This document shows positions 2,846 through 40,528 of a stretch of DNA of 64,000 bases, piece by piece. A program made the position numbers and the translations under genes. Source of the stretch: a virus; IMG/VR virus record IMGVR_UViG_3300037851_000431, positions 32,001 through 96,000 of that record; one strand, 5' to 3'. The first letter of the stretch is position 1. Every line of letters begins with the position of its first letter. The notes under the pieces were generated by a model. It ran no database searches and was not told the DNA's origin. It saw only the letters and a program-made list of their open reading frames with translations.

Positions 2846-2870
2846 AATCTAAGGAATAGGAAAGGTATAA

Positions 2871-3527: not shown

Positions 3528-3528
3528 C

Positions 3529-3604: not shown

Positions 3605-3616
3605 AATTAAAGGGGT

Positions 3617-13493: not shown

Positions 13494-13505
13494 GGAGAAG
13501 GAAAA

Positions 13506-16642: not shown

Positions 16643-17830
16643 ATGGCAAAGAGAGTTAGGGTTCACTCAAGAGATTTGCAGCCGCAAATCGTAGCACCCC
16701 GAGGAATGTTCGCTGCTGCTAGAGTTCAGAGATTTGATTGGCCTACGTCATTACCAACAACAGCAATTGATGAAATTGGACGAAAGCTACATGTGGGAAC
16801 AACGACAGAAATTCCCGAAGTTACTGTTACAATAGAAGCATTTAATGTTAATCATAACATTGATGCCTATATGACAGGATATACACCGGGAACATTTCCA
16901 ACCGTTTCGGGTGTTTCCATTACAGACCTTAAGGGAATTGATGTTGTAGGTCAAATTAGAGATGCTACAACAGCAGCTATAGTAAATGCACTTTATGTTA
17001 AGAGAGGTATCGTTTCAGGAATGGACGCCACGTTTGGTGTGCGAGATAACTCTTCAGTAACATATACAATTACAGCCTCATCTAAAAAGGAATTTAAAAA
17101 TCCTGTATTTAGTGACGGTTTCACTGTCTCAGGCGCACAGACAAATCTTTATTTAACATACACACCAACATATCTACCACTTACTTCAGGTTATATAATT
17201 AATGCTGGTAGAGTTACGGCAGCAGGAGCGCAAACATACCTCGATGAAGGAACAGACTATACTGTAACAGGTACGAATGTTCAACTATTAGCTGATGGTA
17301 CTACAGGAGATTATGTTTGGTTTACGTATTGTTCCGCACAATCTGCTACATTCCAGCCATTGGATGATGTATCAGCAGCAGCAATTCAGGGTAAATATGT
17401 TCCAGTGGCTATTTCAGTTAACAATATCCCAAGAGCGCAGAGTGCTTCAATTCGGGCTTCAATGGAAGTTGAAAGAATCTTCGAATTGGGTGGATTAGGA
17501 AAGCCCGTAGGAACAGAAATTGGTATTCCAAGTGTTACAGGTGATCTTAGTGTACTAAAGACTGATAACGAGTTACTTAATATTCTAACAGGACAGTCCT
17601 CAACAGCAGATGAAGCTGACTTGGAGTATCAGGCTAACAATCTATCGTTAAAGATTCAGTTGAAAGACCCGGCGAATCCAACAAAAGTTGTTAAAACATA
17701 TTATGTACCATCAATTACGATCACACAAGAAAATGATGAATCAACTGTTAACCAGTCAATGAATGAGACATTCTCATGGGAATCAAAGACCGGAGAATTG
17801 TTCATTGCGTCTGGTGCTGGTCCTTGGTAA
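16643..17830 (+). CDS. Major tail (tube) protein
   Basis: Thr/Val/Ser-rich, strong TAAGGAGG SD, followed by terminator, chaperones and tape measure. Confidence 0.8.
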   Translation: MAKRVRVHSRDLQPQIVAPRGMFAAARVQRFDWPTSLPTTAIDEIGRKLHVGTTTEIPEVTVTIEAFNVNHNIDAYMTGYTPGTFPTVSGVSITDLKGIDVVGQIRDATTAAIVNALYVKRGIVSGMDATFGVRDNSSVTYTITASSKKEFKNPVFSDGFTVSGAQTNLYLTYTPTYLPLTSGYIINAGRVTAAGAQTYLDEGTDYTVTGTNVQLLADGTTGDYVWFTYCSAQSATFQPLDDVSAAAIQGKYVPVAISVNNIPRAQSASIRASMEVERIFELGGLGKPVGTEIGIPSVTGDLSVLKTDNELLNILTGQSSTADEADLEYQANNLSLKIQLKDPANPTKVVKTYYVPSITITQENDESTVNQSMNETFSWESKTGELFIASGAGPW

Positions 17831-21900: not shown

Positions 21901-24112
21901 TAAATCAGCAGCAGAGCTTGAACAATTAAAAGAATTCCAAAGAACATATACCTCAAATGTACTTGAAATGGCTGATGCAACCCGACAATTAGATGATGCA
22001 CAAGCTAAAATTTTAGAGAGTACTGGACAAGTAGGTTCCCGAATTACTAAGCCACTCTTGGAAGCAGGGAGATTAACCACCGCCTCTATGCAACAGCTTA
22101 AAAGAGAAGTATATTCTGGTTTATTTGGAATTTCTGATCAACCAATCAGAGGTACCATACCTTGGGGTACTACTGGTAGAGGAGCATTAGCTACTGCTGG
22201 CTCAAGTATAGCAAGAAGTTTAGCACCCGATAAAATCGTGGTGGGTTCAACGGGTGAAACCCAAGCTTTCTATAAAGAGATTAATTTAGCAAAATTAAAT
22301 GCTGAATCTGTTAAGGAATTATTTGATGAACTAGGAAATCTTAAATTTAATATTCCTATAAATGCTGAAAATTTAAAAAATATAGATAAAGCATTACAGT
22401 CTATAAAAGGTACTGTTCCTGATGAAGTGTTTAATAGGATGGAATTGTCTCTTTATGCTGCCGCCGGTGCTGGCTCTCAATTATATGCTACCCTTTTCCA
22501 AATAGATAACGCTATTGCTGAGTTACAAACACGCTCTATATTAGCACTTATTAATCCTGATGATGCCGCAAACGCAGAAAAAGTTTTAAATGCGATGAAA
22601 AATATTATTCCTCAACTTGAAACTAATACAAATATGCTAGGACAAAGTTTGGGTACTAGTGGGTGGCAAGGAGCTTCAACTGTTGGACAAACGAGACTTG
22701 ATGAATTAAGTAAATTAACAGCACAAATAATGTACGGTGATTTATCAAAAGAACAGTTAACAACTGTTTTTGAAAGAGTAGCTGAAATAACAAACGAGTT
22801 AACAGGACAAGCATCTAAATGGGACGATATTAATTATCGTCTAGCATTTATGTCAAATTTAGCTGAGTTGTTTGGATTAAAAGGTAAATTAGCTTTTGAT
22901 GATGTAACGGTATCTGCTAGGGATTTTACAGAAGAGTTAGAAGCAATGACAGGTGCTTTGGAAAAAGCCCGAGACAGTTTCTTAGGGTCATTAGCTGAAA
23001 AATCCGCCTCTTTACAGGCAGATATTTTGGGGGGCCAGTTTAAAGATAAGCCCGGTGAGCAAGCATTTTTACAAGGACAACTTCAGGCCGCATTTGATGC
23101 CATAGATGCATATAATGCTGTTATAGCCAGTTTGGAAAATTTAAAAGATCGAGCAGCAGAAGCAAAAATAAACTTTGAGAATCTTTCACAGGGAATTATA
23201 AGTGATTTTGGAGCAAGTTTAGCGAAAATACCGGGTTTGGAAGACGCTGCCTCCTTGTCATTAGATCAATTAATGACAAGATTATTAGAATTGGGTTTCC
23301 GAATGGGCTTAAGTAGAGAACAGATGGGAAAATTAATTGAAAAGATAGCTGAGTTACCTAAATTAATTAAAGACATTGGTGATTTAAAACTTAGGTTTGG
23401 TATAGTTGGAGATTTAAGCGAGGCAATTAATTCATTTAAACTACTATCTAATGCGACTGCTAGATTAGCAAAAATTTTTCCTCAGTGGCAGGGTATGGCA
23501 GATATGTTTGCTGGTATAGTTAGTGATTTACAAGAAGGGCAAAATAGAATAAATACATGGGCATCAGATATTGGTGGTTATTATGCTGGCGGTAGAGGCA
23601 ATGTAGCTACAGGTAGTAGTTCTGCTGCTGCTAGACAGGCGGGAATGTTGGAAATTCCTGATGAGTTCAGGGAAATGAATAGACCAGTAATTGATCTAGT
23701 AAAAGAAGCTGTTGCTAATGCAAAACTTATACAAAGTCAAATACCGGGAGAAGCCAAACGAAATAAAGACCAAATTGTAGCCATTTTTGATGGTGTAAAG
23801 AAAATTCTTCAAACCAAAGGTATTGGGGAAGAATATCTACGCAAGGCTATGCAAGATTTGACAGATGAAATAAAGAAACAAAATGAATTACTTGCCAAAG
23901 CAGATACCATGAGAAGAATTCGTGTTGGAGCAGGAGATTTTGCAGCCCTCGCAAATGTTCCTATCAATGCAAAATCTGGTATCAGTTTAGGAAGTCCAGA
24001 GGGACCAATAACAATTAGTTTAAATGTTACTGGACAAATATTAACCCCAGCACAGATACAACAATTAGCTGAATTCTTAGGTGCTGCGTTAGGCCGTCAT
24101 ATAGGAGGGTAA
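18980..24112 (+). CDS. Tape measure protein
   Basis: 1710 aa Ala/Gly/Leu-rich helical protein with TMP core (EVATAFKNLV) and hydrophobic segments. Confidence 0.92.
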   Translation: MADVRVRFIGDAASLRSFYAQLGNETRVAGQEIKRAGEKALSGLFGDNPNVQMSGVRTTIDGVNKTFRALGDAVLTVDRRVADIDWRGVAGGEKNFRSTLKAVQDFERAARSGIVATDEQTEAYRQQKVQLQALTTQMMANTRVSTLKQPVGILGQAQTVFGNEPFYEIAKQNLSRLKQTLGEIVQVLPGVNLKALTASMREPLKLAEESLRNMGLMVDTNGRLRTTQGRFASVADPTVASLREEVRWRRQNIGVIETEAKALTQRRIAASAQGRVALGQAQQAVSQSFDMLPPIPSTFGQLLAADKKGQLLKLMGRSGFGIGQNIGELSKSIDASDIHVVDDLVRGVTRVSGSFTDVSGRTKEFSAELDKNGNIVTRFGGQLRGLRQFLAQTGRDFQKVVEWTIATTVVFASLRLVMQGLGIIKEFDTLLARFGITAQLTTEQARQYFGEFAQIATNTATPLREMLTVADDIALGTRKAGQTTEQWKAQMLDLANAVGIYTNLTGQDATKATDILISSMKQLGLTASDVVGVLNKVTAVAGGQAGAISDISQGLAVMAEAGKQAGLSVDQQIATIQVLSQVTAKTPAEVATAFKNLVGALDNPAAIKALDKYNISLKDQEGNLRNIIDIYGEINQKIRQGVIPASDVKGLLRAISGGPRRLPDAAALLSNIDSVNDVTQKSISATNEALVANAKVLDTLNAKWIQLQNLLQKNLFGSFGSQFRSLAEAGIDALTAITNLTSQFSSAIVVILKFVAVLALVKGGLAIFKAISGTFGNMAFALSGGYVAMQENVKRLVAMTEAQRAYAATTRTTTGITWQNTFAIQEQVVAMEKAAITQATFSQRMKDWGKAAKGAFAGVAAGAAAGAVMGGLATGGDIRGIAGGGLMAGGLGLMQIPSPYGISQIAGLSMMVGGFALTQLTGDQQKAADATKMQVEELTNLIKQYEEAGAIYSNASKANKELEKTIGDLNSKTNKSAAELEQLKEFQRTYTSNVLEMADATRQLDDAQAKILESTGQVGSRITKPLLEAGRLTTASMQQLKREVYSGLFGISDQPIRGTIPWGTTGRGALATAGSSIARSLAPDKIVVGSTGETQAFYKEINLAKLNAESVKELFDELGNLKFNIPINAENLKNIDKALQSIKGTVPDEVFNRMELSLYAAAGAGSQLYATLFQIDNAIAELQTRSILALINPDDAANAEKVLNAMKNIIPQLETNTNMLGQSLGTSGWQGASTVGQTRLDELSKLTAQIMYGDLSKEQLTTVFERVAEITNELTGQASKWDDINYRLAFMSNLAELFGLKGKLAFDDVTVSARDFTEELEAMTGALEKARDSFLGSLAEKSASLQADILGGQFKDKPGEQAFLQGQLQAAFDAIDAYNAVIASLENLKDRAAEAKINFENLSQGIISDFGASLAKIPGLEDAASLSLDQLMTRLLELGFRMGLSREQMGKLIEKIAELPKLIKDIGDLKLRFGIVGDLSEAINSFKLLSNATARLAKIFPQWQGMADMFAGIVSDLQEGQNRINTWASDIGGYYAGGRGNVATGSSSAAARQAGMLEIPDEFREMNRPVIDLVKEAVANAKLIQSQIPGEAKRNKDQIVAIFDGVKKILQTKGIGEEYLRKAMQDLTDEIKKQNELLAKADTMRRIRVGAGDFAALANVPINAKSGISLGSPEGPITISLNVTGQILTPAQIQQLAEFLGAALGRHIGG

Positions 24113-24117
24113 AGTAA

Positions 24118-24843
24118 ATGCCTTTAGGACCATCACAACAATATCTCGCTGAATATAATGGATATACTTTACCCGGATATGTTCAGAGTGAATCCTTTGA
24201 TTCTATTATGAATATAGCTCCACATTATGGGGTATACATCGATGGCTCACCGTCTGAGGAGTTGGGCCTACAAAATAAAAAACTCTCCTTGACTTTAAAA
24301 GTGTGGGAAACAGATTATTTAACCTGTAAACAGCAGGTTGAATTAGCCTATACCTATCTTAGAAGTTTTCGTAATGGATTTGCTCAACTAAAAGTACAAT
24401 ATCCTGACAAACATTACATGGCAATGGTTATATCCATTACAACAGAAAAATCTGTACCATCATCAGTACGAGTGCTTGAGTATAAGGTAGATTTTGAGTG
24501 CAAGCCTTGGCTTATAGGTGAAACACTTCATAGTATTAGTAGTGATACAGACGAAGTTGGACGAACCTTAGATAATGGCGGGTGGGCACCAACTATTACT
24601 ACTCTTACAGGAACCAGTATAAGTGGTATAACAGCAGACGGTCAATCAACCGGCAGCGTGGTCACTACAGGCGTTACAGGGCTTGTTATAGACACAGAAG
24701 CATTCACCGCTACCATTGGTGGGGTAAATAAAAATGAGTTGGTTACAACAAAGGATTATAGGCTTTATGTTGGCCCCGGAAAAACCACCTTTACAGTAGA
24801 TGGATCGGCAACTATACAATGGTATGATCGTTGGTATATATAG
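24118..24843 (+). CDS. Distal tail (Dit-like) protein
   Basis: Directly after TMP; VDFECKPW and C-terminal WYDRWYI pattern typical of Dit. Confidence 0.75.
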   Translation: MPLGPSQQYLAEYNGYTLPGYVQSESFDSIMNIAPHYGVYIDGSPSEELGLQNKKLSLTLKVWETDYLTCKQQVELAYTYLRSFRNGFAQLKVQYPDKHYMAMVISITTEKSVPSSVRVLEYKVDFECKPWLIGETLHSISSDTDEVGRTLDNGGWAPTITTLTGTSISGITADGQSTGSVVTTGVTGLVIDTEAFTATIGGVNKNELVTTKDYRLYVGPGKTTFTVDGSATIQWYDRWYI

Positions 24844-24890
24844 ACTAATAATATAGTCTTCTTCAATACAATGAAGGTAGGTGAATAGGA

Positions 24891-27800
24891 ATGGAGTATC
24901 AAAACTACGGACAAGCGGTAGTCTATATTGTTCTGCCTTATGTAGTTGAGTGGAAGTTTGATGAAATTTCTGGAAGTACGCTGTACGATACTCTCAATAC
25001 TAATAACCTTACCGTTACAGGGGCGCTTACCCTTAATCAAGCAGGACCGAATTTATATAATTCAAGCGATAGGGCTGTTACCTTTCCGGGTTCAACAAGT
25101 GCCTATGCGGTCAAAACTTCCCCCACAGGATTACCTACTGGCGCTTCGGCGCGTTCTATTGAGGTTTGGTTTAAAACCACGTCTACTGCTACCCAAACTC
25201 TTATAAGTTATGGTACTGCCAGTACTCGACAAAGTTTTGGTCTTAAGATAAATGGATCAAATTCTATAGGGTTTTGGACATATAGTGATGATGGATACTA
25301 TCCAGCAACAGTAAATAATGGAGCTTGGCATCAACTTGTTGTAACATATAATGGTGGAGTAATTGTTTACGCATATTTAGATGGTATTCAGATTGGAGGA
25401 AAAAATCTCGGGGGAACCTTAAATACTGTTGTTAATGCTAATGGTATAGTAGTAGGAAAAGATTTTCATGCTAGTGCTAATGCATTTAACGGGCAGATAG
25501 GTCAGATTAAAGTCTATAATTTTAAATTATCTCCAATACAAATTTCATCTCAATATAATTTAATATTAAGAGGATTTAGTCTTGCACAAGCACAAGCAGC
25601 CATTCGTGGATTTGTATATGCTCAAACACAAACAGAAATAACACCAACTAAAGCCGCTTTTGCTCAAAGCGAAGTTTTTATAAATAACTGGAATGTTTTT
25701 GCTCAAGCTCAAGCCTTTATTTTTACTTATATAAGTTTAGGACAGGCAGAAACTTTTATTGGTCCTAGATATAAAATTGCTCAAGCAAAAATACTTGTAG
25801 ATTCTCCTATTAAAAATGCTCTAGCTTCAGTTAGAGCACAAATAACTGCTACTACAATACATGGTCTTGCTCAGGTAAAAATATGGGACCAAAGAGCATT
25901 CGGTCAAGCGCACACTAACATACTTCTACCTTTCTATTGGGAAGATCATCAGTTAAAAGATGATGTGTTTGAAGCAGAAACAATATACCTAGGAAGAAAT
26001 ACTTATATAGGCCCACAAAATCTAAATAGTTTTACAGTAAATACAGGTGAAATTTACGATCCTACCTACGTAGGAACATATTATAAAACAGGCTGGATAA
26101 AAATTGTAGTATCCAGTTCTATGACTTTAAGAATAGATACTTTTGGTAGTACTGGAAATCCCTATCTATCTCTTATGGCTAATGAACCGGGAAGTTTCGA
26201 CTTTTATAATTGGGGATATAAAACACTTCCTGCATGTGGTGTTGCTGCTGGTACTTATTATATCGAAGTATCTGCTGATTCTGGTGCTTCTCTCGATAGT
26301 GTTTATTTAAGAATAAGTAGTACTAGTTTTCCTGCATCATCTCCTCAGGCTTTAGGTCAGGCACAAGTATATATTTATCGAGCGCCCCAAAATGATACAC
26401 AAATCTATAGCCAATCTTTGACTTATACTTTAAGAGAACAAGATTATTATAATGAAATAATAGATAATGATGATCCTCTTGCTTATTATAAATTTAATGA
26501 AGATGTAGATTATTTATATAATGATGGAATTATAGATTCATTAGGAAATAGAAATATAATCTATAATTATTCCAACGGTGAGTCTAAACCTCTTTATATT
26601 CAGGGTCCAATTTGGCCTGATTTCAGGGGTATACAACTTGGTCAATCTTATGTGTATTATTATAGTAGCACACAAGGATTATTTACAGGAACTCAGGGTT
26701 GGGCAATAGAGTATTGGGTAAGACCAAATAATCCAGATCAATCTTGGTGTTTTAGACTGTATGATTATAATACATCAGACTATTATATATATCTTGGCTT
26801 AGGTGATCCATCTAATGTGCCCGAAGGTAGTTTACCTTGGTATAATTATACGCCTAACGTGGGAACGCAAGCTATCTTGGCAGTCTATGATTATACTAAT
26901 AGTACATATTATTATAATTATATTGCTAGTCCATCACCTATTTCTAATGAGGATTGGCATCATGTTGTAGGTACTCTTTCAAATGATGGTACAACACTTA
27001 AACTTTATGTAGATGGAAAATTAGTAGCATCTAAAGCATTAGGACATAATGCTAATAAAGTTTGGACAGGCTGGCATCAATATATTCCCGATGATTCGGC
27101 TTATAATGTACAAATAGATGACTATGTTATTTATGATCATGAGTTAACAGAAGATCGGGTATTAAGACACTATAATCTTGTTAATTATGTTTCTTCAGAT
27201 ACACAATTTATCTGGTCACAGGCTCAAACCTTTGTTGTTTATCAAGACGGTAATACGTATACACGATTTAATGTAGGTCAAGCTCAAGTATATAGTGGCT
27301 CATACAAAATATTTGCTCAAGCTATATGTATAATCAAAGTAATAACTGATAGTTATGGTTTATTAGTAGCACAAGATGGAGCAGTTCATTTATATGGAAT
27401 GCATTTAATAAATGCTAGCGGCGGCAGTGATATATACTATTGGGATGATGATATAGGGACGGCTGATGTTTCTAGTTTTTCTGGTACATTTAATTATACA
27501 CTTTCTCCTATTGGTTCTGAGTATTATGGTTTAGTTCAAAGTACAACTTCTGCTAATAGATATTGGACTAGTTCTGCTACTAATAGATTAAAAGAGCTTT
27601 ATGATGTAACTAAATCATGGACAATTGAAACATGGGTTAGATCACCGGGGTCCGCTAATCAACAGGGATGGGTATGGTCATTAGGTGCAACATCCCCCGG
27701 ATATTATCTCGCAGCATTAGGTTTTGGAAGTGGTACTACTAATCCCGCTAATGGAAATCAAATTATTGTTCATTTTTATAATCCTACTACATATGGAACT

Positions 27801-30800
27801 GTTTATGATACTGGAATAACTTACACCCCTAATACTTGGTATCATACCGCAGTTACTTATAACGGTAATAAGGTTTTTAGTGTTTACATAAATGGAACAT
27901 TAGTTAAAACAATTAATTATTCTTATTGGTTATATAATTTACCATATTTTTATCTAGCTTATAATTTTTATTGGGGATCAAATAGTGTAGTATTAGCATA
28001 CGATAATTTAGCAATCTACCCATTTGAATTGTCTCTAAGTAAAATTATATCCCATTCTGAATATAGGGCAACAATTACAAATGCTTATGCTTCCGCATCA
28101 TTCCAAATAAATTCTAATAAATATAATCAGTATGCAAGTGCTGCATTCTATCCTTGGAATCCTACTGGAACAAATAAAGTACAACAGTACTCTCAGGCTG
28201 CTTCCTATCGCCCTTACTACGTATTTGGTCAGGCAAATGCTATTACAAATGTTATACAACAATCATATTATGGATTAGCTGTTGCTAGTATTTTACAAAC
28301 ATATCCTTTACCAGATTATAAAGCAGTGGTATTGGCAGATACACCGGATGTATATTGGCCGTTTGATGATAGTACTGTTACTACCGCGAAAGAGATTGTT
28401 GCTAATAAAATAGCAACACTTGGAGGTTCAAGTACATCACCAACACCAAATACCTATATTGGATATGGTGGTATTGATCCCGGTTGGTCGTGGGCAGGAA
28501 CATCAAGATATGTATATACTAGTTATGCTCAACCTTCTACTAATATTGCTATTGTAGAAGCATGGTTTAAAACTACAGGAACAGGTGAAATTTGGCAAGG
28601 TCGCTATAATCTTGCAGGGAATACCTCTGGAAAAGGTATTACTTTAACATTAAATTCAACTGTAGGATTTGGATGCGAAAACGGTAAACTTAACTTCTTT
28701 GTAAATTCTGATGGTATACTACACGGCATTAAATCCAATAATTTCTATAACGATAATCAGTTATATCATGTTGTAGCAGCATGGCGATCTAGTACGGGTG
28801 TAGGACTTAATAATAGTCAATTTAGTTTGTATGTAAATGGAGTACAAATCTCAACTACGAACCTTAGTACGGCTGGATCGGCTACAGCACCATTAGCAGG
28901 AAATACTGATACCCCATTCGCGGGCGCAAGGTATGGTGTTTTCTCAGGTTATTTATCAAATATAGCATTCTATACACATGATCTAACAACCGATCAAATT
29001 CTTGCCCACTACGATGCCAGAGGATTAGCTGTTAATGCTCGTCCTTTTGGTCAAGCACAGGTATATATTGGACACTTTTTGCCCGGTTTAGCTCAAGCCC
29101 TAATACGGCAAACTACACCTAATTATCCTGTATTTGGTGATAATGGTCCATTTGGTTTAGCTCAAACAATTATTTGGCCATTTAAATTTGGTTTAGCTAT
29201 AGCACAAATTGCTTGGGAACAGGAAGGTTATAGAAAAACTGTACTTGCAGATAAACCTATTTTATACTACCCAATGGAGGAACCAAACTTTAACAATGAT
29301 CTTACAAATCTTGTAAGATATCCTGTAGGTGGTTCAGCAAATTATAGTGCTTCGTCTGTTTATAGTGCTTCATATTCGGTTGACAAAGCTGCTGATGGTA
29401 ACTATGCCGATGGTTGGGCAGCCCTAGGTTATACATCAGGAGAATATTGGAAAGTAACTTGGACTGTACCTCAAACCTTTAAAACTCTTAGGTTGGTTGC
29501 TAGACCCGGTAATGATTATTTTGGTATTGGTTACATTGAATTATATGATGGTACTAATACAACAATAATAGATAATATAACTTACCCGCCTACTCCAAAC
29601 GGAAGTTCAATTTATACTATAAATGCAGAAAATATTCTGTCTATGAAATTAGTAAGTACAAGTGGGGGGGTATCTAATCCCGGCTTCTCAGAGGTAGAGG
29701 CGTTTGATGCTTACGATGCGGCTGGTGTTTTACATACAATAGTAGGCCGAAGAAATGGTTATTGGACAGGAGCATCGGCTACATTTAATGGGGTAAGTCC
29801 TGTATATCCCGGTAAGTCCATCGCATTTAATGGTAATGCGGTATATATTTCCCCTAATGTTAACTATACTACAATTACTGAAAATTTAACTATTCCCGGT
29901 ATTTATTCTTCTGTAGATAATCATAATATTATAGGAAATGATTTTTGGGCAGTAACAGGAGATACCATTACCTTTAGATTAAAAATGACAAATGGTTCTC
30001 CTTATAGTATAGGTGTATACGATGTAACAAATGGGGGAGCCAACAACTGGCTCCAAGTTGCCAGTCAGTATTCGTATATTGATGAAAATGGTTACAAAGT
30101 CTTTAATATTACTATCACTGCTACAGGATTTTTTCACCCCTATATTTATAGTTATAGTAGCTCTTATGCTGGAACAGGTACTATAACAAGAAAACATTAC
30201 GATCAAGATTCTATGATTCCAATAGGAGATTTTCCAACTCCTAATAATGCCTGTGTAACAATTGAAAGCTGGGTTAAATGGGATGGAACAACAAATCGAA
30301 TGATCTTTGGATTTGATTGGAATGATTTGTTTGTAATCTCACAATCAGGTATAGGCTTTATAGGATTTAATACAGGTAATAGTGATAATTATGGGGTAGC
30401 CGCCTTGTCTGTTGGCGGTTGGTATCATATAGTTGCTGTCTTTTATGCTGGACAGTATACAACTATTAAAAATAAGTTGTATATAAACGGTGTTCGTCAA
30501 GAATTAGCATACATAGATGGTAATATATCAAGACAATATCCTACATTTGGACAAGATTTTTATATAGGAAGTTGGCCTACTAATACATCATATCAGTGGA
30601 CAGGCGCTCTAGATGAGTTTGCTATCTTTAATTATGAGTTAACACCTGAACAGATATTAACACATTATAATGCGAGAACAAACTTTCAAGCATTTGCTTA
30701 TAGCCAAGCACATATTTACGTTTACGGCGGAAGTGGCGATCCTCCATATCCACGTAATCAGATGTATGCCGGTGCCTTTACTCATGTTAATACACATTTT

Positions 30801-33800
30801 GGAATTGCTCAAGCCGAAGCAAGAATTATAGGAACCTATTATTTAGGTAGTCAAGCGTTAGCATTAACCACCACACCCGGACAGGGCTTAATGCGAATGA
30901 TCTGGAATGGTGGAGCATATGCTATTGAGAATATCTTTAATTGGTACATTGAGGATGGAGCAAGTCAACCTAATTATTCAAATGGTAATCCTATTCCTTA
31001 TTTCCCCGGTCCTAATGGTGGTGCTGCATGGTCTGCTAGATTTGTAGCAGATGAAGAGGGATGGTGGCAATTTCAGACTTATTCTGATGATAACTCTGAA
31101 TTATGGATTAATAATACAAGAGTAGTGGCAAATAATGGTGGAGGAGGATCAGGCAGTTTCTTTGAGGGTGGACAATCTCCTACTTATAGTAGTGTTGGTT
31201 CTATTTATTTATACGATGGAGCAGAATATAATCTACATCTGCGTTTCGGGAACCTTAATAATTCCGGTTGGGTTATAGGAGCATGGTACAAACGACCAAC
31301 TGACAGTGAATTGAAATATTTAACTAACGGTAGTCCTCCTTGGTTAGATGCTCCAAAGACTAGGAAGTATTCTCAGGCCCAAGCAGAAATTTTCCCACAA
31401 CCCCGTCGTAATCAATCTGCACAAGCAGAAGCTAATATAATTAGAATAATAAAGGTTCATGCTCAGGCGCAGGTACGAGTGAGTTGGCAGCATTGGGCAC
31501 AGGCTAATGCTAGGATAATTGCTTTTAATGTTAATGCATATGGTCAGGCAAGGGTAGTAGCAGGACACCAGCATCACGCTAATGCTCAGGCTAAACTTAA
31601 TTCATTTGATTGGCCACAGTGGGGACAATCTCAAGCAAATATCTATAAATCTGCTGGTTATGGTTTAGCTAGAGCGCATATATATAGAACTGAATATTGC
31701 ATAGGTTATGCTGTAGCAATAATTTTGGGTGGGGTAGGAAAAGGAATTACGCAAGCAAATATTAAACAGACCTACCCATTAATGAGTATGGATGTTAATT
31801 ACGCTCTTATTTCTCAAGGTGCTACAGCCTTTGACTCTACAGGACAACAGGATGTTCCTTACTATGCTATTGATGGAGATGATTTAGGCTCTGCATGGAT
31901 TCTAGGAGGAGCAGCATTAGGTCAATTCCTTGTAGTTAATTTAGGACAATATAGAACTATTAACTTCATAAGAATTTTACCTGTTACTTATAACTGTGTA
32001 GTAAGAATCGAATATTTAGTTGGAACCTATCGGGATGATGACGAACAAAATACTTGGATAAATGTTGCTGAATTACAGTTTAATGTAAGTTATTTTGAAC
32101 CTGTTAATACAGCAAGGGAAGTAAAAGCAGAGGTTATTCCGACTACGGCTCAGTATTGGAGAATTAAAGTTATTGAATTTGGGGATTATGAGGGCATATC
32201 CATAGCCAGCTTTGATTTGGGTTGGGCAACAGTTAAATCCCCAACATTTGCACAGGCCCAAGCATCCTTTGGTCGTTGGGTTGCTGGTCAAGCTTCGTTC
32301 TATATTTCACCGGGTAAGGGTTGGCAGTGGGGACAAGCCAAAACAGCAGCAATTAATACTTTCCAAACTTATGCACAAGCTAATGCTTACTATATTCCAC
32401 CCACAACATTCGGTATAGCAAACAGTGATATCTTACAGACGTATCTGATGTATGCTAATGCCAATTGTTTGTATCTTATACCAACTTTTCATGGTATAGC
32501 GCAAGCAAGAATAGTGGGATTTGATATACCACATATTGCATACGCACAAACCAGTGTAAAGCAAACTTACCTTAAATTTGCCCAAGCCAAAGCAACGATT
32601 TGGAAAAGAACAGGCTTTGCTCAAGCACTTGCAATTATTAAAAACTTTAAATATAGAGTTTATGGATTAGCCAGAACAACGATTAGTACTCAAAGATATG
32701 CTATTGCTACTGCCTATATTAAAAAGAGCGGTGGAACAGCACATACAACGGCTTTAATTAGAGAGCATAATATTAATCATTATGCATATGCTAGAACAAG
32801 TATTAAATTTCCACCGATGGGACTTGCCTTAGCGCATATTCTACGAATGTATCAAAAATATGCTCAAGCAGAATCATTGTTAAATACAGGACTTAAAACA
32901 GCATCAGTACAGGCAAATATTGAACAAACATATCAAAAATATTCACAAACCCAAGTAGGTATTAAACAAACTTATTATACATCTTCTCAGGCATTAACGG
33001 TCGTTAAAATACGATACAGAATGGATGGTCAAGCACGAACAGTTGTTCAAATACAAAGGACTAGGGTAGGCCAATCTATGGTATGGGTAGGATATCATAA
33101 ATTCAGTCAAGCCCAAACACAAATACAGTCCTTCAATGTCCCTAAATTTGGTATAGCAAACGGTTATATATTGATAGGTCACGAAGTCATCCCACCTTCT
33201 GGAATACCATCAAGTAATTATCAAACTTACCTTGTTCGTTATAACAATCAAACTTTACCCGGATATGCTCAATCTGAGTCTTATAAAAATGACTTAACTA
33301 TTGCTATAAATAATGCCCCTTATATGGATGCTTCACTAAATGAGGATTTGGGACTCAAAAACATTATTATTACTATAGAAATGCTTCTGTGGGAAGAGAC
33401 TTATCAAAAATGTAAAGATAAATTACAATTAGCAGCTACTATTCTTAGAAGTAATCTAAGAGGGCAGTTTGTGCCTTTATATATACAACGATATGACAAA
33501 TATTATTTGGCATTAGTTAGATCGATAACAGTTACAAAGACCGTTCCTGAAAGTTCCAGAATTCTTAAATATACAGTAGAATTTGAAGCTAAGCCTTGGC
33601 AGATGAATATAGATGGAACAAGCACCGCTCCTGCTCCTCCACCTATTGAAATACCGCCTGAATTATTACCGCCGCCACCTATTATACCAACACCATCGGT
33701 TATTTATCGAGAAAAATTTGGTATGAGTCAAGTTAAGATTAATAGTTTTGGAACAATTAAAAATGGTTTAACACAAACTAAAATTATTAGAACAGAAGGT

Positions 33801-34034
33801 TATGGATTAAGTCGGGTATTTATTTATAAAATTATTAAATCTGCTCAAGCAGGAACAAGGATTAAAAGAAACTATAGGATAAATGCTCAAGCACAAACAA
33901 GTATTACAAGAAAATTAGGTATCGGACAAGCGCGTTCAAATATCATTAGATTGCCGGGACCACCTACTAATTTAACGGTTACTCCCGGCGATGAAAAAGT
34001 TACATTAAATTGGAATCCGCCATCATATAGTTAG
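24891..34034 (+). CDS. Giant tail adhesin: multiple LamG/concanavalin domains, discoidin (F5/8C)-like, PA14-like, AQA repeats, internal Dit-like domain
   Basis: Five recurrences of IE-x-W...(W/Y)H-x-V...Y-x-(D/N)G LamG pattern; FQTYSDDNSELWIN PA14; A-x-DG discoidin starts; ~12-14 aa AQA repeats. Confidence 0.85.
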   Translation: MEYQNYGQAVVYIVLPYVVEWKFDEISGSTLYDTLNTNNLTVTGALTLNQAGPNLYNSSDRAVTFPGSTSAYAVKTSPTGLPTGASARSIEVWFKTTSTATQTLISYGTASTRQSFGLKINGSNSIGFWTYSDDGYYPATVNNGAWHQLVVTYNGGVIVYAYLDGIQIGGKNLGGTLNTVVNANGIVVGKDFHASANAFNGQIGQIKVYNFKLSPIQISSQYNLILRGFSLAQAQAAIRGFVYAQTQTEITPTKAAFAQSEVFINNWNVFAQAQAFIFTYISLGQAETFIGPRYKIAQAKILVDSPIKNALASVRAQITATTIHGLAQVKIWDQRAFGQAHTNILLPFYWEDHQLKDDVFEAETIYLGRNTYIGPQNLNSFTVNTGEIYDPTYVGTYYKTGWIKIVVSSSMTLRIDTFGSTGNPYLSLMANEPGSFDFYNWGYKTLPACGVAAGTYYIEVSADSGASLDSVYLRISSTSFPASSPQALGQAQVYIYRAPQNDTQIYSQSLTYTLREQDYYNEIIDNDDPLAYYKFNEDVDYLYNDGIIDSLGNRNIIYNYSNGESKPLYIQGPIWPDFRGIQLGQSYVYYYSSTQGLFTGTQGWAIEYWVRPNNPDQSWCFRLYDYNTSDYYIYLGLGDPSNVPEGSLPWYNYTPNVGTQAILAVYDYTNSTYYYNYIASPSPISNEDWHHVVGTLSNDGTTLKLYVDGKLVASKALGHNANKVWTGWHQYIPDDSAYNVQIDDYVIYDHELTEDRVLRHYNLVNYVSSDTQFIWSQAQTFVVYQDGNTYTRFNVGQAQVYSGSYKIFAQAICIIKVITDSYGLLVAQDGAVHLYGMHLINASGGSDIYYWDDDIGTADVSSFSGTFNYTLSPIGSEYYGLVQSTTSANRYWTSSATNRLKELYDVTKSWTIETWVRSPGSANQQGWVWSLGATSPGYYLAALGFGSGTTNPANGNQIIVHFYNPTTYGTVYDTGITYTPNTWYHTAVTYNGNKVFSVYINGTLVKTINYSYWLYNLPYFYLAYNFYWGSNSVVLAYDNLAIYPFELSLSKIISHSEYRATITNAYASASFQINSNKYNQYASAAFYPWNPTGTNKVQQYSQAASYRPYYVFGQANAITNVIQQSYYGLAVASILQTYPLPDYKAVVLADTPDVYWPFDDSTVTTAKEIVANKIATLGGSSTSPTPNTYIGYGGIDPGWSWAGTSRYVYTSYAQPSTNIAIVEAWFKTTGTGEIWQGRYNLAGNTSGKGITLTLNSTVGFGCENGKLNFFVNSDGILHGIKSNNFYNDNQLYHVVAAWRSSTGVGLNNSQFSLYVNGVQISTTNLSTAGSATAPLAGNTDTPFAGARYGVFSGYLSNIAFYTHDLTTDQILAHYDARGLAVNARPFGQAQVYIGHFLPGLAQALIRQTTPNYPVFGDNGPFGLAQTIIWPFKFGLAIAQIAWEQEGYRKTVLADKPILYYPMEEPNFNNDLTNLVRYPVGGSANYSASSVYSASYSVDKAADGNYADGWAALGYTSGEYWKVTWTVPQTFKTLRLVARPGNDYFGIGYIELYDGTNTTIIDNITYPPTPNGSSIYTINAENILSMKLVSTSGGVSNPGFSEVEAFDAYDAAGVLHTIVGRRNGYWTGASATFNGVSPVYPGKSIAFNGNAVYISPNVNYTTITENLTIPGIYSSVDNHNIIGNDFWAVTGDTITFRLKMTNGSPYSIGVYDVTNGGANNWLQVASQYSYIDENGYKVFNITITATGFFHPYIYSYSSSYAGTGTITRKHYDQDSMIPIGDFPTPNNACVTIESWVKWDGTTNRMIFGFDWNDLFVISQSGIGFIGFNTGNSDNYGVAALSVGGWYHIVAVFYAGQYTTIKNKLYINGVRQELAYIDGNISRQYPTFGQDFYIGSWPTNTSYQWTGALDEFAIFNYELTPEQILTHYNARTNFQAFAYSQAHIYVYGGSGDPPYPRNQMYAGAFTHVNTHFGIAQAEARIIGTYYLGSQALALTTTPGQGLMRMIWNGGAYAIENIFNWYIEDGASQPNYSNGNPIPYFPGPNGGAAWSARFVADEEGWWQFQTYSDDNSELWINNTRVVANNGGGGSGSFFEGGQSPTYSSVGSIYLYDGAEYNLHLRFGNLNNSGWVIGAWYKRPTDSELKYLTNGSPPWLDAPKTRKYSQAQAEIFPQPRRNQSAQAEANIIRIIKVHAQAQVRVSWQHWAQANARIIAFNVNAYGQARVVAGHQHHANAQAKLNSFDWPQWGQSQANIYKSAGYGLARAHIYRTEYCIGYAVAIILGGVGKGITQANIKQTYPLMSMDVNYALISQGATAFDSTGQQDVPYYAIDGDDLGSAWILGGAALGQFLVVNLGQYRTINFIRILPVTYNCVVRIEYLVGTYRDDDEQNTWINVAELQFNVSYFEPVNTAREVKAEVIPTTAQYWRIKVIEFGDYEGISIASFDLGWATVKSPTFAQAQASFGRWVAGQASFYISPGKGWQWGQAKTAAINTFQTYAQANAYYIPPTTFGIANSDILQTYLMYANANCLYLIPTFHGIAQARIVGFDIPHIAYAQTSVKQTYLKFAQAKATIWKRTGFAQALAIIKNFKYRVYGLARTTISTQRYAIATAYIKKSGGTAHTTALIREHNINHYAYARTSIKFPPMGLALAHILRMYQKYAQAESLLNTGLKTASVQANIEQTYQKYSQTQVGIKQTYYTSSQALTVVKIRYRMDGQARTVVQIQRTRVGQSMVWVGYHKFSQAQTQIQSFNVPKFGIANGYILIGHEVIPPSGIPSSNYQTYLVRYNNQTLPGYAQSESYKNDLTIAINNAPYMDASLNEDLGLKNIIITIEMLLWEETYQKCKDKLQLAATILRSNLRGQFVPLYIQRYDKYYLALVRSITVTKTVPESSRILKYTVEFEAKPWQMNIDGTSTAPAPPPIEIPPELLPPPPIIPTPSVIYREKFGMSQVKINSFGTIKNGLTQTKIIRTEGYGLSRVFIYKIIKSAQAGTRIKRNYRINAQAQTSITRKLGIGQARSNIIRLPGPPTNLTVTPGDEKVTLNWNPPSYS

Positions 34035-36776
34035 GTGAGGAAATTGCTTCAAATTAGATTGGTTATACCTGAATTCAGTAGTGGTGTAAACTTTACTGAT
34101 CCAATTATATTAGAGCGAGCTGATAATATTAGTTTAGCTAAAACAGTAAACTCGGATATAGAATCAATATCTTTTACTGTACCTTTAACTGATCCTAAGG
34201 TAGTTTATATAAATTATCTTCGATGGTGGGAATGTTGGGATACTGAAACAAATATAAGATTAAATTATGGTCCTATAAGAGAGATTGCTGGCACAGGTGG
34301 AGAACCTAAAAGAGTAAGTGGACCGGGAAGGTCTGCCGTATTGTCAGAGTTTTATAAAAGCATTCAAACATTTTACTATCCTGTTAATTTATTCTTTGAT
34401 GATTTACGATATGAAAATATTGCCGGAGAACCACGAACCTCAACAATTATAAATCAGGCAACTTCCTCCGATTATTATGGGTTAAGCCTGCGATCAAAAG
34501 ATTATGTTATTGATGAGCAGACGGGCTATATTAGTATAGGACGAGACACACCAGTACAAGGACCAATAAAAACAGATGTATTTTGGAGTGGGGTTGCCAA
34601 AGCAGACTGGTTAACTGTAAATTTAGGGGACCAGTATACCATATCTAAAGCTCGTGTTCTCTTACCTTGGTGGGGAGGAGCAACCATTAATACTAACCGT
34701 ACTTATGATTGGAGTTTTTCCTATTCTACTAATAATGATTCTTTTACAGAGGTATATTCTACGCCTGTTCCAAATCAAGCTTTTACAGGTTGGGCTTCAG
34801 AGGGTGGTTTAGCTATTTATATGGATAGCGACTTTGGTGGCTTTGAACGGTATACTGTTTCAGGTTCTACCAGTCCTATTGAAGCACAATATTGGAAACT
34901 TAATATTACTAACACACATGCTTGGTATGGCAACAGGTTTGAGGGTAGTTTAGCAGATGAATGGAATTGGGAGTGTGGGGAAAGTGATGTTCTTTATGGG
35001 GAACCGCGCGAGTCCCCGACAATAAGCGGAGGAATAATACCTAAAGATGACATTAATCCATCGAGTGATTGTCATGCATCTGCTGTTGAAATTGGTTTAT
35101 ACAGAAAAATATTACCACTAGATAATATTCCAAATTTAGTTTATCATCAAATTCAAAATACTAACCGACAAATAACTTATTACCATGTTCCTGATTCAAG
35201 TGAGATGATAACTGTTGGTGGTGGTAATAAATACGAACCGGGATCGTTCTTTAGAAATATACAATTTACTGGCGGTGGCACAGTAAAAGACGAATATAAT
35301 GCAGTGCTATATGAGGGTTCAGGCACAACTTTAAAGTGCCCTGCTTATACTAGAATGTTATTATTTAGTTCCCCGGCTTATATTTTAAATGTAGATACAT
35401 GGATTGGGAAAACCGATGCTTTCTCATATGGTGGAAGTTACTCGTACTCAACAGTTGCAAATGATTATGCAACTCTTCATTTTAGAGGCGTATCTTTAAA
35501 ATGGTTTGCAACAATACCTGAAGGAGAAACGGCTGGACAAGTTACTATCGAGCTACGATCCCAAGGTACTGATGGTACATGGAGTGCTTGGACAGAAGTT
35601 GATGAATCACCTTTAACTTTACCAACAGGTGTTTCAGCAGAAAAAGTATTTGAGATTACCTATGAATCAGGAATTTTGCAAGACGAAACTATTTACGAAT
35701 TAAAAATAACTAACATTAACGGAGGCTATGTATCCATTGATGCTTTTGCTGGTTATTGGTCTGGATCATTTACAGAATATAATCAAGATGATTACCGATT
35801 ACATTTAAGAATACCGGAGGAAGCTACTCAAATATATGATGGTAAATTCTCATTCGGTAGTGTAATAAAGTTTGTGGGTGGGGTATTAACAAAAGGTGGT
35901 TTGTCATTTACAGGTGATAGGGTAGTTGTATACGGTCGTAAGGGACCAGATTACGGTATTATAAGAATAGCTTTATGGAGTCAGGCAGAACCAGAAATAT
36001 CTTTAGTAAATATACCGGGGACAGGTAATGGTTATCTTGAAGTAGATTTAAATCATCCTTATGATATAGCACAGGTAGTATTATTTGATTCAGATGAGTA
36101 TTTTATACCGAATGTAGGTCTTCCTTGGGGCAAGTATTTAGTTGCTATTTATAAACCAGAGGACCCTGATCCTATATGGATTGATGGCATTGGTGTACAC
36201 GAAACAAGTGGGTTAAGTGTTAAATTTTTAAATACTTCCCATCTAGAAATACTTAAAAGTACAGCCGAAGCACTACAACTAGAGTGGGATATAACAGAAA
36301 ATGGGTTATTAATTACCCCAAGATTAGGTACAGATACAGAAGTAATTTTTGCAGAAGGCAGGGGTACAACAATTAATATTGAAAATGTGGAAGATGTAAG
36401 TCAGATTGCTACTATGTTAGTTGCTACGGGTGCGGATATAGATGGGCTTCCCTTATCCGCCGTAGTTGAGAATAAAAAAACGAGAGAATTGTTTGGAAGA
36501 ACGGTTCAAAAATTATACGATTTTAGAAATATAGGTGACTATTTTACACTTATTGGTGCAGCAAGAACAGAACTACTAAGACGAAGGGAACCACAAAGAA
36601 GAATAGTGGTTAGATATGCGGTTGGTCCTTTACCAATTGTTGTAGGAGATAGTTTTATTATAAAAAAATCGGATTTCCAAGCAAGGGTAAGAGCAATAAC
36701 CATTACTAGATCACAAAATTCTAGTACTGGTACAGAGTATGTAGTGGAGTGTTTAGAATGGCCTCAGATAAACTAA
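34035..36776 (+). CDS. Baseplate hub / Tal-like tail protein with inserted carbohydrate-binding domains
   Basis: N- and C-terminal hub-like segments (ISFTVPLTDPK; VGDSFII) flanking discoidin-like and FRG/FTG-DR beta-sandwich repeats. Confidence 0.7.
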   Translation: MRKLLQIRLVIPEFSSGVNFTDPIILERADNISLAKTVNSDIESISFTVPLTDPKVVYINYLRWWECWDTETNIRLNYGPIREIAGTGGEPKRVSGPGRSAVLSEFYKSIQTFYYPVNLFFDDLRYENIAGEPRTSTIINQATSSDYYGLSLRSKDYVIDEQTGYISIGRDTPVQGPIKTDVFWSGVAKADWLTVNLGDQYTISKARVLLPWWGGATINTNRTYDWSFSYSTNNDSFTEVYSTPVPNQAFTGWASEGGLAIYMDSDFGGFERYTVSGSTSPIEAQYWKLNITNTHAWYGNRFEGSLADEWNWECGESDVLYGEPRESPTISGGIIPKDDINPSSDCHASAVEIGLYRKILPLDNIPNLVYHQIQNTNRQITYYHVPDSSEMITVGGGNKYEPGSFFRNIQFTGGGTVKDEYNAVLYEGSGTTLKCPAYTRMLLFSSPAYILNVDTWIGKTDAFSYGGSYSYSTVANDYATLHFRGVSLKWFATIPEGETAGQVTIELRSQGTDGTWSAWTEVDESPLTLPTGVSAEKVFEITYESGILQDETIYELKITNINGGYVSIDAFAGYWSGSFTEYNQDDYRLHLRIPEEATQIYDGKFSFGSVIKFVGGVLTKGGLSFTGDRVVVYGRKGPDYGIIRIALWSQAEPEISLVNIPGTGNGYLEVDLNHPYDIAQVVLFDSDEYFIPNVGLPWGKYLVAIYKPEDPDPIWIDGIGVHETSGLSVKFLNTSHLEILKSTAEALQLEWDITENGLLITPRLGTDTEVIFAEGRGTTINIENVEDVSQIATMLVATGADIDGLPLSAVVENKKTRELFGRTVQKLYDFRNIGDYFTLIGAARTELLRRREPQRRIVVRYAVGPLPIVVGDSFIIKKSDFQARVRAITITRSQNSSTGTEYVVECLEWPQIN

Positions 36777-37748: not shown

Positions 37749-38855
37749 ATGAGAAGATTAGAACAACTTGCTCAAAATGTAAATAAATCTAGAAAAACTA
37801 CTGAATTAAACACGCGACGTATACAAGCAAATTTACCTCTCGTAGAGCGTAAGCTTGATGTTATAACAGGAGAACAAAATTATAACATGCATTTTCCTGT
37901 AACTAAACATGATCATAGTGTTCTTCTAAATTTGTATATTAAGCCTGATAATTGTTGCGAATGTGATCCGGGTGCCCAAACAGTTATAAGAAGTGCTATA
38001 GGATATTTTCCAGAAAGTATTGTCCCTATTACTGTTGAAGAAGATGTTGCATATCCTGCTAAAATAATTGCAGAAGCGTATTCATATTGGGGAAATCCCC
38101 AAGGATTAGTACAAACAGGGAGTAATTTTAATTACGGTTATGATAGCCCCTTCTTCCACAGGCTTTATCAAGAATTCCCCTATATTGGAGGATACTCAGT
38201 TAGACCTGATGGTTATGGAATTGTTGTACCTACTGATGGTGTATACTCAATTTTTTTCAGTTCTGTAATTAATGGGGGAAGTATTGGTGGGGACGATGCG
38301 GAATTAATTGTTTATATTAAAAGAACAACAATAGAAGATGGTGAAGAGTTAACTTACACATTAACTAAAAGAATATATTCAGTTTATAAAGGAAATTTAA
38401 CACCCGGAAATCATGTTCATCATATGATTCATCTAGAAAATAGACCTGAATGGACCATGCTTTTATATGCAGCTTGTGTTAATTTAAATGCTGGTGATAG
38501 TGTTGATGGGTATATTGAGGTTAAAAATTTACCTAATTTTAGTACACAGTTTGGTTGGGGAGATAATACAAATAGTCTTAAGGTAAATCTTCTAGGTTTA
38601 GGTTATGGTACATTAATAGGTTATGTATATAATGTTGATACGCGCGATCCTTTAGAGGGAGCTGCGTTACATTATACTCAAGGCTTTGGAGGAAGTACCG
38701 TTACAGATGAATTTGGGGCCTACGCTTTTTATGAGTTAAGACCCGCTACATATACAGTGACAGCATCTAAGGATGGCTATCACTCATTAACAAGAACAGT
38801 AACAGTATATTTTAATAAAATTTCACAAATAGATTTTAATCTTGAACATATATAA
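37749..38855 (+). CDS. Tail-tip / receptor-binding protein paralog 3 with carboxypeptidase-regulatory-like domain
   Basis: Shared N-terminus; C1q-like GIVVPTDGVYSI...LNAGDSV; C-terminal G-x-V...PLEGA...TDEFG-x-Y...YTVTASKDGY. Confidence 0.7.
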   Translation: MRRLEQLAQNVNKSRKTTELNTRRIQANLPLVERKLDVITGEQNYNMHFPVTKHDHSVLLNLYIKPDNCCECDPGAQTVIRSAIGYFPESIVPITVEEDVAYPAKIIAEAYSYWGNPQGLVQTGSNFNYGYDSPFFHRLYQEFPYIGGYSVRPDGYGIVVPTDGVYSIFFSSVINGGSIGGDDAELIVYIKRTTIEDGEELTYTLTKRIYSVYKGNLTPGNHVHHMIHLENRPEWTMLLYAACVNLNAGDSVDGYIEVKNLPNFSTQFGWGDNTNSLKVNLLGLGYGTLIGYVYNVDTRDPLEGAALHYTQGFGGSTVTDEFGAYAFYELRPATYTVTASKDGYHSLTRTVTVYFNKISQIDFNLEHI

Positions 38856-39346: not shown

Positions 39347-40528
39347 ATGAAAATATTGTTTGTAGGCGACTCACCCACAGTTGAGACTGGTTTTGGCGTG
39401 GTTGCACGTAATCTGCTACCAAGATTACAAGGCTTAGGACATGAAATTCATGCTCTAGGAGTTAATTATTATGGTGATCCATACGATCAACGCAGATTTT
39501 CTTTCCCCATTGTTCCTGTTGATCATGGAAATATTGATTTAATGTACGGGTATAGAAAACTGTGGGAAGTAGAAGATCGTGTTAAACCAGATTTACTTTT
39601 CTTTTTGAATGATCCTTGGATTATACAAAAATATATGCAGCATAAACCTCCTAATCATAGCAGGTATTATAAATCTTTAGCATATTTTCCTATAGATGCT
39701 GGCCCATTAAAGCCTGAATGGGCAGAATTATTAAGTGGGTTCGATGCTCAGGTCTGTTATTCTAATTTTGCAGAGCGTGTTGTAATAGAAGCTAATAATA
39801 ATAAGCGTCCTGATAATCTATATCAGATATATCATGGAGTAGATACAAAAACTTTCTTCCCTGTTAATCAGTCAATAGCAAGAGAAAAATTAGAACTTCC
39901 ACAGGAATCTTTTATTATAGGTATGGTAGCAAGAAACCAGTATCGAAAGAGATTTGATATACTAGTTAAAGCGTTCTCGATCTTTGCTAAAGATAAACCT
40001 AATGCTAAACTGTATTTACACACAGGGATAAAAGATGTGGGGTTTGATATAGCCGATTTATCGAGGCAATTTAAGTTGGGGGAGAAATTAATTCTTACCG
40101 AGGGTATGGATGTACAGCAACCTATACCAGTAGAAGCATTAAATTTAATTTATAACTCTTGGGATGTAAATACACTTATAAGTTTAGGTGATGGGTTTGG
40201 ATTACCTGTAGCAGAAAGCATGGCTACAGGATGTGTTCAGTTAGTTAGCGATCACTCATGTCTGAAAGAATTAGTAGACGGTCACGGTGGGTTAACGGTT
40301 AAAACAGCAGCATGGATGTTAAATACAAATGGTATTAATACTTGGGGAGGAGTTTCAGATGTGGATGATCTTGTGGATAAACTATCAATTCTTTACGCGA
40401 ACAAAAATTTAAGAATAAAGATGGCGGAAGAAGGCTATGAATTTATAACACAGGAAAAATTCTCTTGGGATTTTGCTGCCAGTGAGTTTCATAAGATAAT
40501 AAAAGATATATTTCATCTGGTGAAATAA
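39347..40528 (+). CDS. Glycosyltransferase family 4
   Basis: MKILFVGDSP...TGFG, ARNQYRK, DGFGLPVAESMATG. Confidence 0.92.
   Translation: MKILFVGDSPTVETGFGVVARNLLPRLQGLGHEIHALGVNYYGDPYDQRRFSFPIVPVDHGNIDLMYGYRKLWEVEDRVKPDLLFFLNDPWIIQKYMQHKPPNHSRYYKSLAYFPIDAGPLKPEWAELLSGFDAQVCYSNFAERVVIEANNNKRPDNLYQIYHGVDTKTFFPVNQSIAREKLELPQESFIIGMVARNQYRKRFDILVKAFSIFAKDKPNAKLYLHTGIKDVGFDIADLSRQFKLGEKLILTEGMDVQQPIPVEALNLIYNSWDVNTLISLGDGFGLPVAESMATGCVQLVSDHSCLKELVDGHGGLTVKTAAWMLNTNGINTWGGVSDVDDLVDKLSILYANKNLRIKMAEEGYEFITQEKFSWDFAASEFHKIIKDIFHLVK

Follow-up and report, generated by a model that had tools for sequence, protein, structure and literature searches.

How receptor-binding proteins are attached to the tails of long-tailed phages is known for a few model phages only, and the attachments described comprise the arm-and-hand of the distal tail protein (Dit) of p2, BppU of TP901-1, the collar of T5 and the carbohydrate-binding module (CBM) inserts of evoDits. 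In siphophages, the order of the genes roughly mirrors the topology of the tail tip (PMC7291167). The evoDits of Lactobacillus, Lactococcus, Streptococcus and Bacillus siphophages carry sugar-binding modules on Dit and display them from the ring (PMC7291167); such a phage has a single Dit, whose C-terminal galectin domain bears one or two CBMs as loop insertions. For phage p2, two Dit-level rings have been described within one baseplate (PMC7291167); a single gene product forms both of them, and neither has an arm. In T5, p140 forms an extra stacked tube-fold ring and the side fibres are anchored through the p132 collar, while gp48 and gp54 of T4 are solved extra rings of the same fold (10.1101/2022.09.20.507954). 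T5 p140 arose by duplication of the tube protein, contains two tube domains, assembles as a trimeric pseudo-hexamer and holds the fibres non-covalently via the collar. In the ceduoviruses c2 (L15/L16) and bIL67 (ORF35/36), two adjacent paralogous Dit-like genes each encode sugar-binding modules (PMC12474359); both proteins are small, with the CBM inserted mid-protein and no plain copy beside them, and their hetero-hexameric ring is a prediction only. Full-text literature searches on Dits that are extended, duplicated or C-terminal yielded the evoDits, the double ring of p2 and the ceduovirus prediction, and nothing else.

Here we describe a phage tail module in which a plain Dit is followed by a giant protein whose C-terminal part holds a second Dit N-domain, which probably makes a very long arm an integral part of the tail tip; no published description of such a mounting of host-binding proteins was found. 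As in the SPP1 gp19.1-type Dits (PDB 2x8k; TP901-1, p2, 80alpha, NF5, monocin, Douge), both copies have the tube-fold N-domain of the ring, the first copy likewise has an outer C-domain, and its gene directly follows that of the tape measure protein (TMP). Unlike these systems, the module has two different Dit genes without a sequence-level link to the Dits of Pfam, PHROG or PDB, and the second lacks the C-domain and bears a 2,770-aa N-terminal extension. With the evoDits it shares the combination of a ring domain and carbohydrate-binding modules on one polypeptide, binding here being predicted from Pfam; the modules, however, are borne by a separate paralog beside a retained plain Dit and form an array of at least nine lectin-type modules, all of them N-terminal to the Dit N-domain rather than in galectin-domain loops. 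T5 p140, like T4 gp48/gp54, is a duplicated tube-fold protein forming an extra ring of the distal tube, in T5 as a fibre mount, whereas the domain found here is a duplicate of Dit (46% identity to the first copy) and its arm is part of the same polypeptide. As in the ceduoviruses, a single tail module encodes two Dit-like paralogs, a pair that is conserved here among relatives. What sets the module apart from both evoDits and p140 is a very long, covalent N-terminal arm borne by a second paralog while a plain Dit is retained.

The tail module and its giant protein

The window, the whole stretch of 64,000 nucleotides that was analysed, comprises bases 32001-96000 of a linear IMG/VR record of 105.7 kb (88% complete, 39% GC). 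The phage is uncultured, and cultured kin were not found in the collections searched: among 50,697 GenBank phage records there was no relative of the first Dit and a single terminase match (22% identical), and no prophage relatives were found among 185,579 genomes. No sheath-like gene was seen between the probable tube protein and the head genes, which points to a long non-contractile tail. The features of the module, in window coordinates, are as follows.

16643-17830, + strand: probable major tail tube protein of 395 aa (TM 0.61-0.63 to Phage_tube_2 / Phi812_tail_tube clusters in an Atlas structure search)
Between the probable tube protein and the tape measure gene: ORF of 245 aa
18980-24112, + strand: TMP, 1,710 aa (PF10145 PhageMin_Tail, E 3.6e-19; same position in all related loci)
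24118-24843, + strand: Dit1 (P0002), a plain Dit of two domains, 241 aa (AF2 model and Foldseek)
24891-34034, + strand: Dit2, giant arm-bearing second Dit, 3,047 aa, P0003 (single uninterrupted ORF)
25110-32177, + strand: variable lectin array of Dit2, with short runs of AQA repeats between modules (Pfam)
32208-33200, + strand: AQA-repeat stalk, residues ~2440-2770, directly upstream of the Dit module (regex map)
33204-33605, + strand: Dit2 N-domain, residues 2772-2905, ring-type tube fold (46% identity to Dit1; model)
33606-33701, + strand: Pro-rich linker, residues ~2906-2937, in place of the start of the Dit C-domain (sequence)
33702-33950, + strand: about six further AQA-type repeats, 3' of the Dit domain (repeat map)
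33951-34031, + strand: conserved C-terminal end, LPGPPxNLxVxPGDxxVTLxWxPPxYS (shared with other clusters)
34035-36776, + strand: Tal-like tail-tip protein of 913 aa carrying an F5/8C insert (at this position in every relative)

The order TMP, Dit1, giant Dit2 and Tal-like gene is shared by the window and every complete related locus, which places the Dit genes where a Dit is expected, between the tape measure gene and that of Tal, as far as the tentative assignment of the latter goes. The Tal-like gene starts immediately after the TAG of the giant gene, and its product has homologs that are 40-64% identical. Position, together with weak leads from Atlas 'putative tail protein' / Prophage_tail clusters (0.83-0.90) and from one of six homologs that weakly matches PF06605 (E 0.0017), suggests that the 913-aa ORF may be Tal. 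A tandem-duplicated tube protein, if present, would favour three-fold rings; comparison of the two halves of the 395-aa protein for a T5-like duplication gave an hhalign probability of 4%.

The giant ORF runs for 9,144 bases without an internal stop, and a public collection includes its product as a protein of 3,047 aa. Its lectin array consists of five LamG_3 stretches (best at residues 74-219, Pfam E 7.8e-69), a DUF7402 module (1482-1605, E 1.2e-06), a PA14 module (2030-2133, E 1.6e-09) and an F5/8 type C module (2312-2429, Pfam E 4.6e-09), which are predicted from these matches to bind sugars. The AQA repeat of the stalk has a period of ~13 aa and the motif aromatic-A/G-Q-A-x-A-x-I. At the other end, the protein closes with 'LPGPPTNLTVTPGDEKVTLNWNPPSYS', which looks like the first two strands only of an FN3 domain. 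The same FN3-like ending is found in P0007, P0018, P0016 and P0020, which belong to different lineages; in P0007 and P0018 it follows a Pro-rich linker and AQA repeats as in the giant, and in P0016 and P0020 it sits after a complete Dit C-domain. An ending common to other lineages points to a conserved add-on, and a truncated FN3 domain left as a scar of recombination was rejected on this ground. Since this tail is found after Dit modules and the arm before them, both ends of the Dit module can carry extensions.

Two other readings of the 3' part of the gene were also discarded. Read-through or frameshifting that would join the giant to Tal does not agree with the in-frame TAG-GTG junction, which is not conserved (in L004 the genes overlap, in another frame), with the other frames, which stop at once, or with the N-terminus of Tal, which does not continue the FN3-like end. 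An internal start yielding a free Dit2 domain was dismissed, as the linker has no Met, Val or Leu start context.

Sequence and fold of the two copies

A preliminary description of the window had proposed a second copy of the Dit N-domain near the C-terminus of the giant ORF, with Pro-rich linkers on both sides. Pairwise alignment by BLASTP bears out the copy, pairing residues 1-131 of Dit1 (P0002) with residues 2772-2903 of P0003 at 61/132 identities (46%) with one gap (E 4e-35), and the peptide that had been quoted for window positions 33222-33602 is an exact translation. Both copies contain the 16-mer ACTTTACCCGGATATG, at 24166 and 33252, and the window has no further occurrence of it (expectation from shuffles, 0); the whole 105.7-kb record holds exactly two copies of the domain. 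As for the linkers, the downstream one is indeed rich in proline (13 Pro in 27 residues), but the link on the upstream side, 'HEVIPPSGIPSS', is short and has a mild proline enrichment only.

By sequence, neither copy, nor the profile of the family (an alignment of 23 members), matched a Dit family in Pfam, PHROG or PDB, so the link to Dits is made by fold comparison only; the C-domain of one ortholog matched PF22768 SPP1_Dit at E 4.6e-4 and 20.8 bits, below the cutoff of 25. The AF2 monomer model of Dit1 (pLDDT 79) has the SPP1 Dit as its top Foldseek match (PDB 2x8k, E 5.9e-11, TM 0.67), followed by the monocin tip, NF5, TP901-1, 80alpha, p2 and Douge Dits, with both domains covered. Dit1 models as a complete SPP1-type two-domain Dit, and the Dit identity that had been suggested for the 241-aa ORF finds its counterpart in these fold matches to SPP1 gp19.1, TP901-1, p2, 80alpha, NF5 and monocin Dits.

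For the giant, a model of residues 2700-3047 is confident over ~2777-2904 only (pLDDT 85-95), and the order of strands and helix there is that of the Dit1 model. This domain aligns with residues 9-140 of the SPP1 Dit (2x8k) over 122 residues at Z 12.0 and an rmsd of 3.2 Å, and it has kept the tube fold of a Dit N-domain, as had been proposed. Further structural matches, Foldseek being among the methods used, are other Dits, tube initiators, tube proteins and Hcp, including a solved Hcp2-Hcp3 heterohexamer of the same fold (9vne); the phage's own 395-aa tube protein showed no relation to the domain (hhalign probability <1%). Both the embedded domain and Dit1 have the N-terminal tube fold, a beta-sandwich with a helix resembling Hcp and gpV. 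The peripheral, galectin-like C-terminal domain is present in Dit1, as its full-length match indicates, and absent from the copy in the giant; Dits of the lambda gpM type (8iyk_E) are likewise without it. Segment 31-50 has a low pLDDT in both monomer models and a conserved sequence, which fits an inter-subunit hairpin that would be ordered only in the oligomer.

Relatives and history of the pair

Eight related loci were found in IMG/VR, and the seven that are long enough to show gene order all present a TMP, a plain Dit, zero to three genes, a large Dit-ended protein (1,005-2,292 aa) and a Tal-like gene (909-1,050 aa). In five loci, the terminal module corresponds to the whole of Dit1, with N- and C-domains (39-46% identity), and the N-domain only is left in L003, L004 and the window. 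A metagenome scan for further loci added two, at least one of which is probably an already counted record, and for the deep-branching member P0106 no locus was found. According to BLAST, what the large proteins of the relatives share with the giant is the AQA stalk and the Dit module, while their distal lectin content varies; the Dit2 domain is 64-70% identical to its orthologs and the rest of the arm diverges. The layout is that of a modular receptor-binding protein, in which the tip varies and the anchor is conserved, except that the anchor here is C-terminal. The small genes that separate Dit1 from Dit2 in relatives have no similarity to the giant, and an origin of the giant by their fusion was rejected on that ground.

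A profile search of 1.8 billion representative proteins retrieved 108 clusters. An N-terminal extension is present in 94 of them (median 902 aa, maximum 3,503), and the other 14 are plain Dits of ~250 aa or fragments. Approximately 78 of the extended clusters continue for ~100-130 residues after the N-domain, the length of a Dit C-domain; eight stop right after the N-domain, and a few have other tails. In a tree of the N-domain, a single compact clade (SH-aLRT 92) unites the plain Dits and the fused copies fall into many deeper clades, the two copies of the window grouping with their respective orthologs. The shape of the tree implies that the duplication is old, that both copies have been kept and that the fused copy evolves faster. 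Judged from these alignments and the tree, the giant is an old second Dit gene with a grown N-terminal arm, not a stray domain in an adhesin, and the loss of its outer C-domain is secondary in this phage, most orthologs keeping both Dit domains. The preliminary reading of a Dit domain copied into an adhesin is upheld as regards the domain and revised as regards its placement, which the survey of relatives identifies as the remnant of a clade-wide second Dit gene.

The same observations bear on whether the domain has a present role at all. The lost C-domain and the protein end resembling a cut FN3 domain could suggest a relic of gene fusion or an ORF chimeric by assembly, but the 9,144 bases lack a stop, the architecture recurs in independent metagenomes, the domain has stayed 64-70% identical to its orthologs in an otherwise diverging arm, and at least four other clusters share the unusual C-terminal end; such an origin is very improbable.

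Place of the second copy in the tail tip

The fold of the Dit2 N-domain, its conserved core, a gene order that does not vary and an architecture seen throughout the family make it likely that the domain is a ring subunit by which the arm becomes part of the tail tip, whether in a ring of its own or in one shared with Dit1. The domain keeps the 21 positions that are conserved in both paralog groups, among which E47, G50 and K54 lie in or next to the 31-50 segment of low pLDDT. The alternative that the domain has become a recognition module docking on the exterior of the tip, for instance on the outer domains of Dit1 or on the tube, outside the axial channel, is improbable. It would accommodate the long extensions at both ends of the domain in this phage and its neutral to slightly basic charge (net +2, pI 8.6) next to an acidic Dit1, a difference in charge that we regard as uninformative; however, core positions of the tube fold and residues 31-50 have been kept across 94 diverged clusters, as befits a ring subunit, a complete Dit is present in most orthologs, and no example of a Dit N-domain outside a ring was found in the literature consulted.

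For a ring subunit, two arrangements are to be weighed. We prefer a model in which Dit2 forms its own ring, layered between that of Dit1 and the Tal-like hub, to an alternating ring of three and three subunits, although this stacked arrangement is itself tentative and held with somewhat less than even confidence. Dit1 is much more conserved than Dit2, and six positions are conserved in Dit1 only, including L3 and P5 at its free N-terminus, with none conserved in Dit2 only; the two copies thus share a core but are not interchangeable and should occupy non-equivalent places. A stacked ring is favoured because each paralog keeps its own pattern of constraint, because most Dit2 orthologs are complete Dits, because gene order approximates tip topology, with Dit1 by the TMP and Dit2 by the Tal-like gene, and because extra stacked tube-fold rings have precedents in T5 and T4, next to the second Dit ring of p2.

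A single mixed ring, in which three Dit1 and three Dit2 N-domains alternate as a pseudo-hexamer and display three arms matching the symmetry of a Tal trimer, is the main alternative, though a rather unlikely one. At 46% identity and with a shared conserved core, the lateral contacts of the two copies could be compatible, and an outer-domain loss from Dit2 in some lineages would be tolerable if Dit1 supplied these domains; three arms are also sterically easier than six. The Hcp2-Hcp3 heterohexamer (9vne) is a solved example in this fold, and an alternating ring of two adjacent Dit-like paralogs has been predicted with AlphaFold3 for c2 and bIL67 (PMC12474359), though the ceduovirus case is itself prediction only. 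The higher conservation of Dit1, with its six private positions, is more in keeping with self-contacts than with contacts to a partner that evolves fast, and a complete two-domain Dit, able to form a ring by itself, has been kept in most Dit2 orthologs.

On the stacked reading, the Dit2 N-domain would serve as an anchor, six copies of which would form their own tube-fold ring, with the plain Dit1 ring, adjoining tube and tape measure, on one side of it and the Tal-like hub on the other. Homology, fold, conservation of the pair and architecture of the family are observed; that a ring forms, how it stacks and how many copies it has is what we infer. The tip would carry six covalently attached sugar-binding arms, each a 2,770-residue N-terminal extension with lectin modules on an AQA-repeat stalk, of a polarity that would be the reverse of ordinary fibres, with the anchor C-terminal and the binding modules N-terminal. 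Distal modules are swapped between phages, and stalk and ring domain are inherited vertically. In this phage, the outer, galectin-like domain has been replaced by the Pro-rich linker, six AQA repeats and the FN3-like two-strand end, a C-terminal tail that may tie the arm to a neighbour.

Several points weigh against the stacked ring. Six arms of 335 kDa on one ring amount to ~2 MDa and may be crowded, and the AQA stalk, if it is a trimeric fibre, makes a six-fold display awkward. The N-terminus of the tube fold is normally engaged in contacts between rings (10.1101/2022.09.20.507954), with which a huge extension might interfere. The identity of the downstream gene as Tal, moreover, derives from its position and weak leads. 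The fuller picture of the clade's tip, with two stacked non-identical Dit rings, arms of 100-400 kDa as subunits of the second ring, and AQA shafts and FN3-like strands as cross-ties, is possible but, taken as a whole, doubtful.

A ring subunit that is the arm's own end would, if true, be another solution to the attachment of receptor-binding proteins, and it would account for very large adhesins being secured with no adaptor protein. In the fuller picture, the arms would be mounted as part of the tail tube itself and in reversed polarity, and a new shaft repeat of ~13 residues, the AQA repeat, together with an FN3-like two-strand end that would complete a partner's domain, would cross-tie them. 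A conserved stalk and ring anchor with variable distal lectins provides a clear annotation rule for giant ORFs from metagenomes, and the modular layout offers a natural chassis for studies of host-range change in an uncultured clade of phages of ~105-120 kb. Two more giants with AQA shafts are encoded in the same genome, at genome positions 20522-25228 and 25204-30105.

AQA repeats and arm placement

The Dit domain of the giant protein Dit2 is bordered on both sides by AQA repeats (window 32208-33200 and 33702-33950), the unit of which, according to the motif map, spans about 13 residues and reads aromatic-A-Q-A-x-A-x-I-K-x-T-Y. Long tandem runs of the same repeat are found in two more giant proteins, of 1,569 and 1,634 aa, with 40 and 52 motif hits, respectively. 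These further AQA-repeat giants are located upstream of the window, at the following positions of the whole virus record:

G000:C1:20522-25228, AQA-repeat giant protein
G000:C1:25204-30105, AQA-repeat giant protein

The AQA repeat is a candidate for an undescribed fibre-shaft repeat. In P0057, a 1,501-aa member of the Dit-domain family in the protein library, the Dit module lies mid-protein (residues 865-994 plus the C-domain) and is followed on its C-terminal side by AQA repeats and a lectin-like domain, which indicates that Dit2 arms are able to grow from either end.

The C-terminus of Dit2 and the Tal-like gene

The giant protein terminates in a conserved motif (window 33951-34031) that resembles strands A and B only of an FN3 domain, and a matching ending is present in four other clusters belonging to different lineages. 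This FN3-like end might act as a strand donor, completing a domain of a partner protein. The Tal-like gene begins with a GTG immediately after the TAG stop of the giant ORF, without a change of frame (window 34032-34037). This in-frame TAG-GTG junction, also found in the related locus L006, while the genes overlap in another frame in L004, probably reflects tight coupling rather than read-through.

The Tal-like protein itself (window 34035-36776), the proposed tail-tip hub, contains a discoidin (F5/8 type C) insert at around residues 180-303, and because of this insert the hub may be a sugar binder too.

Neighbouring genes

Further downstream, a 368-aa tail protein (window 37749-38855) has a CarboxypepD_reg domain at its C-terminal end (E 9.5e-14). 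Three glycosyltransferase genes (GT2-like, GT1-like and GT4/GT1), within or adjoining the structural module (window 12825-14486 and 39347-40528), may have a role in the glycosylation of virion proteins. Upstream of the terminase gene lies a cluster of ten tRNA genes (Pro, Gly, Trp, Phe, Lys, Asp, Ile, Gln, Ser and Tyr; window 1314-4318).
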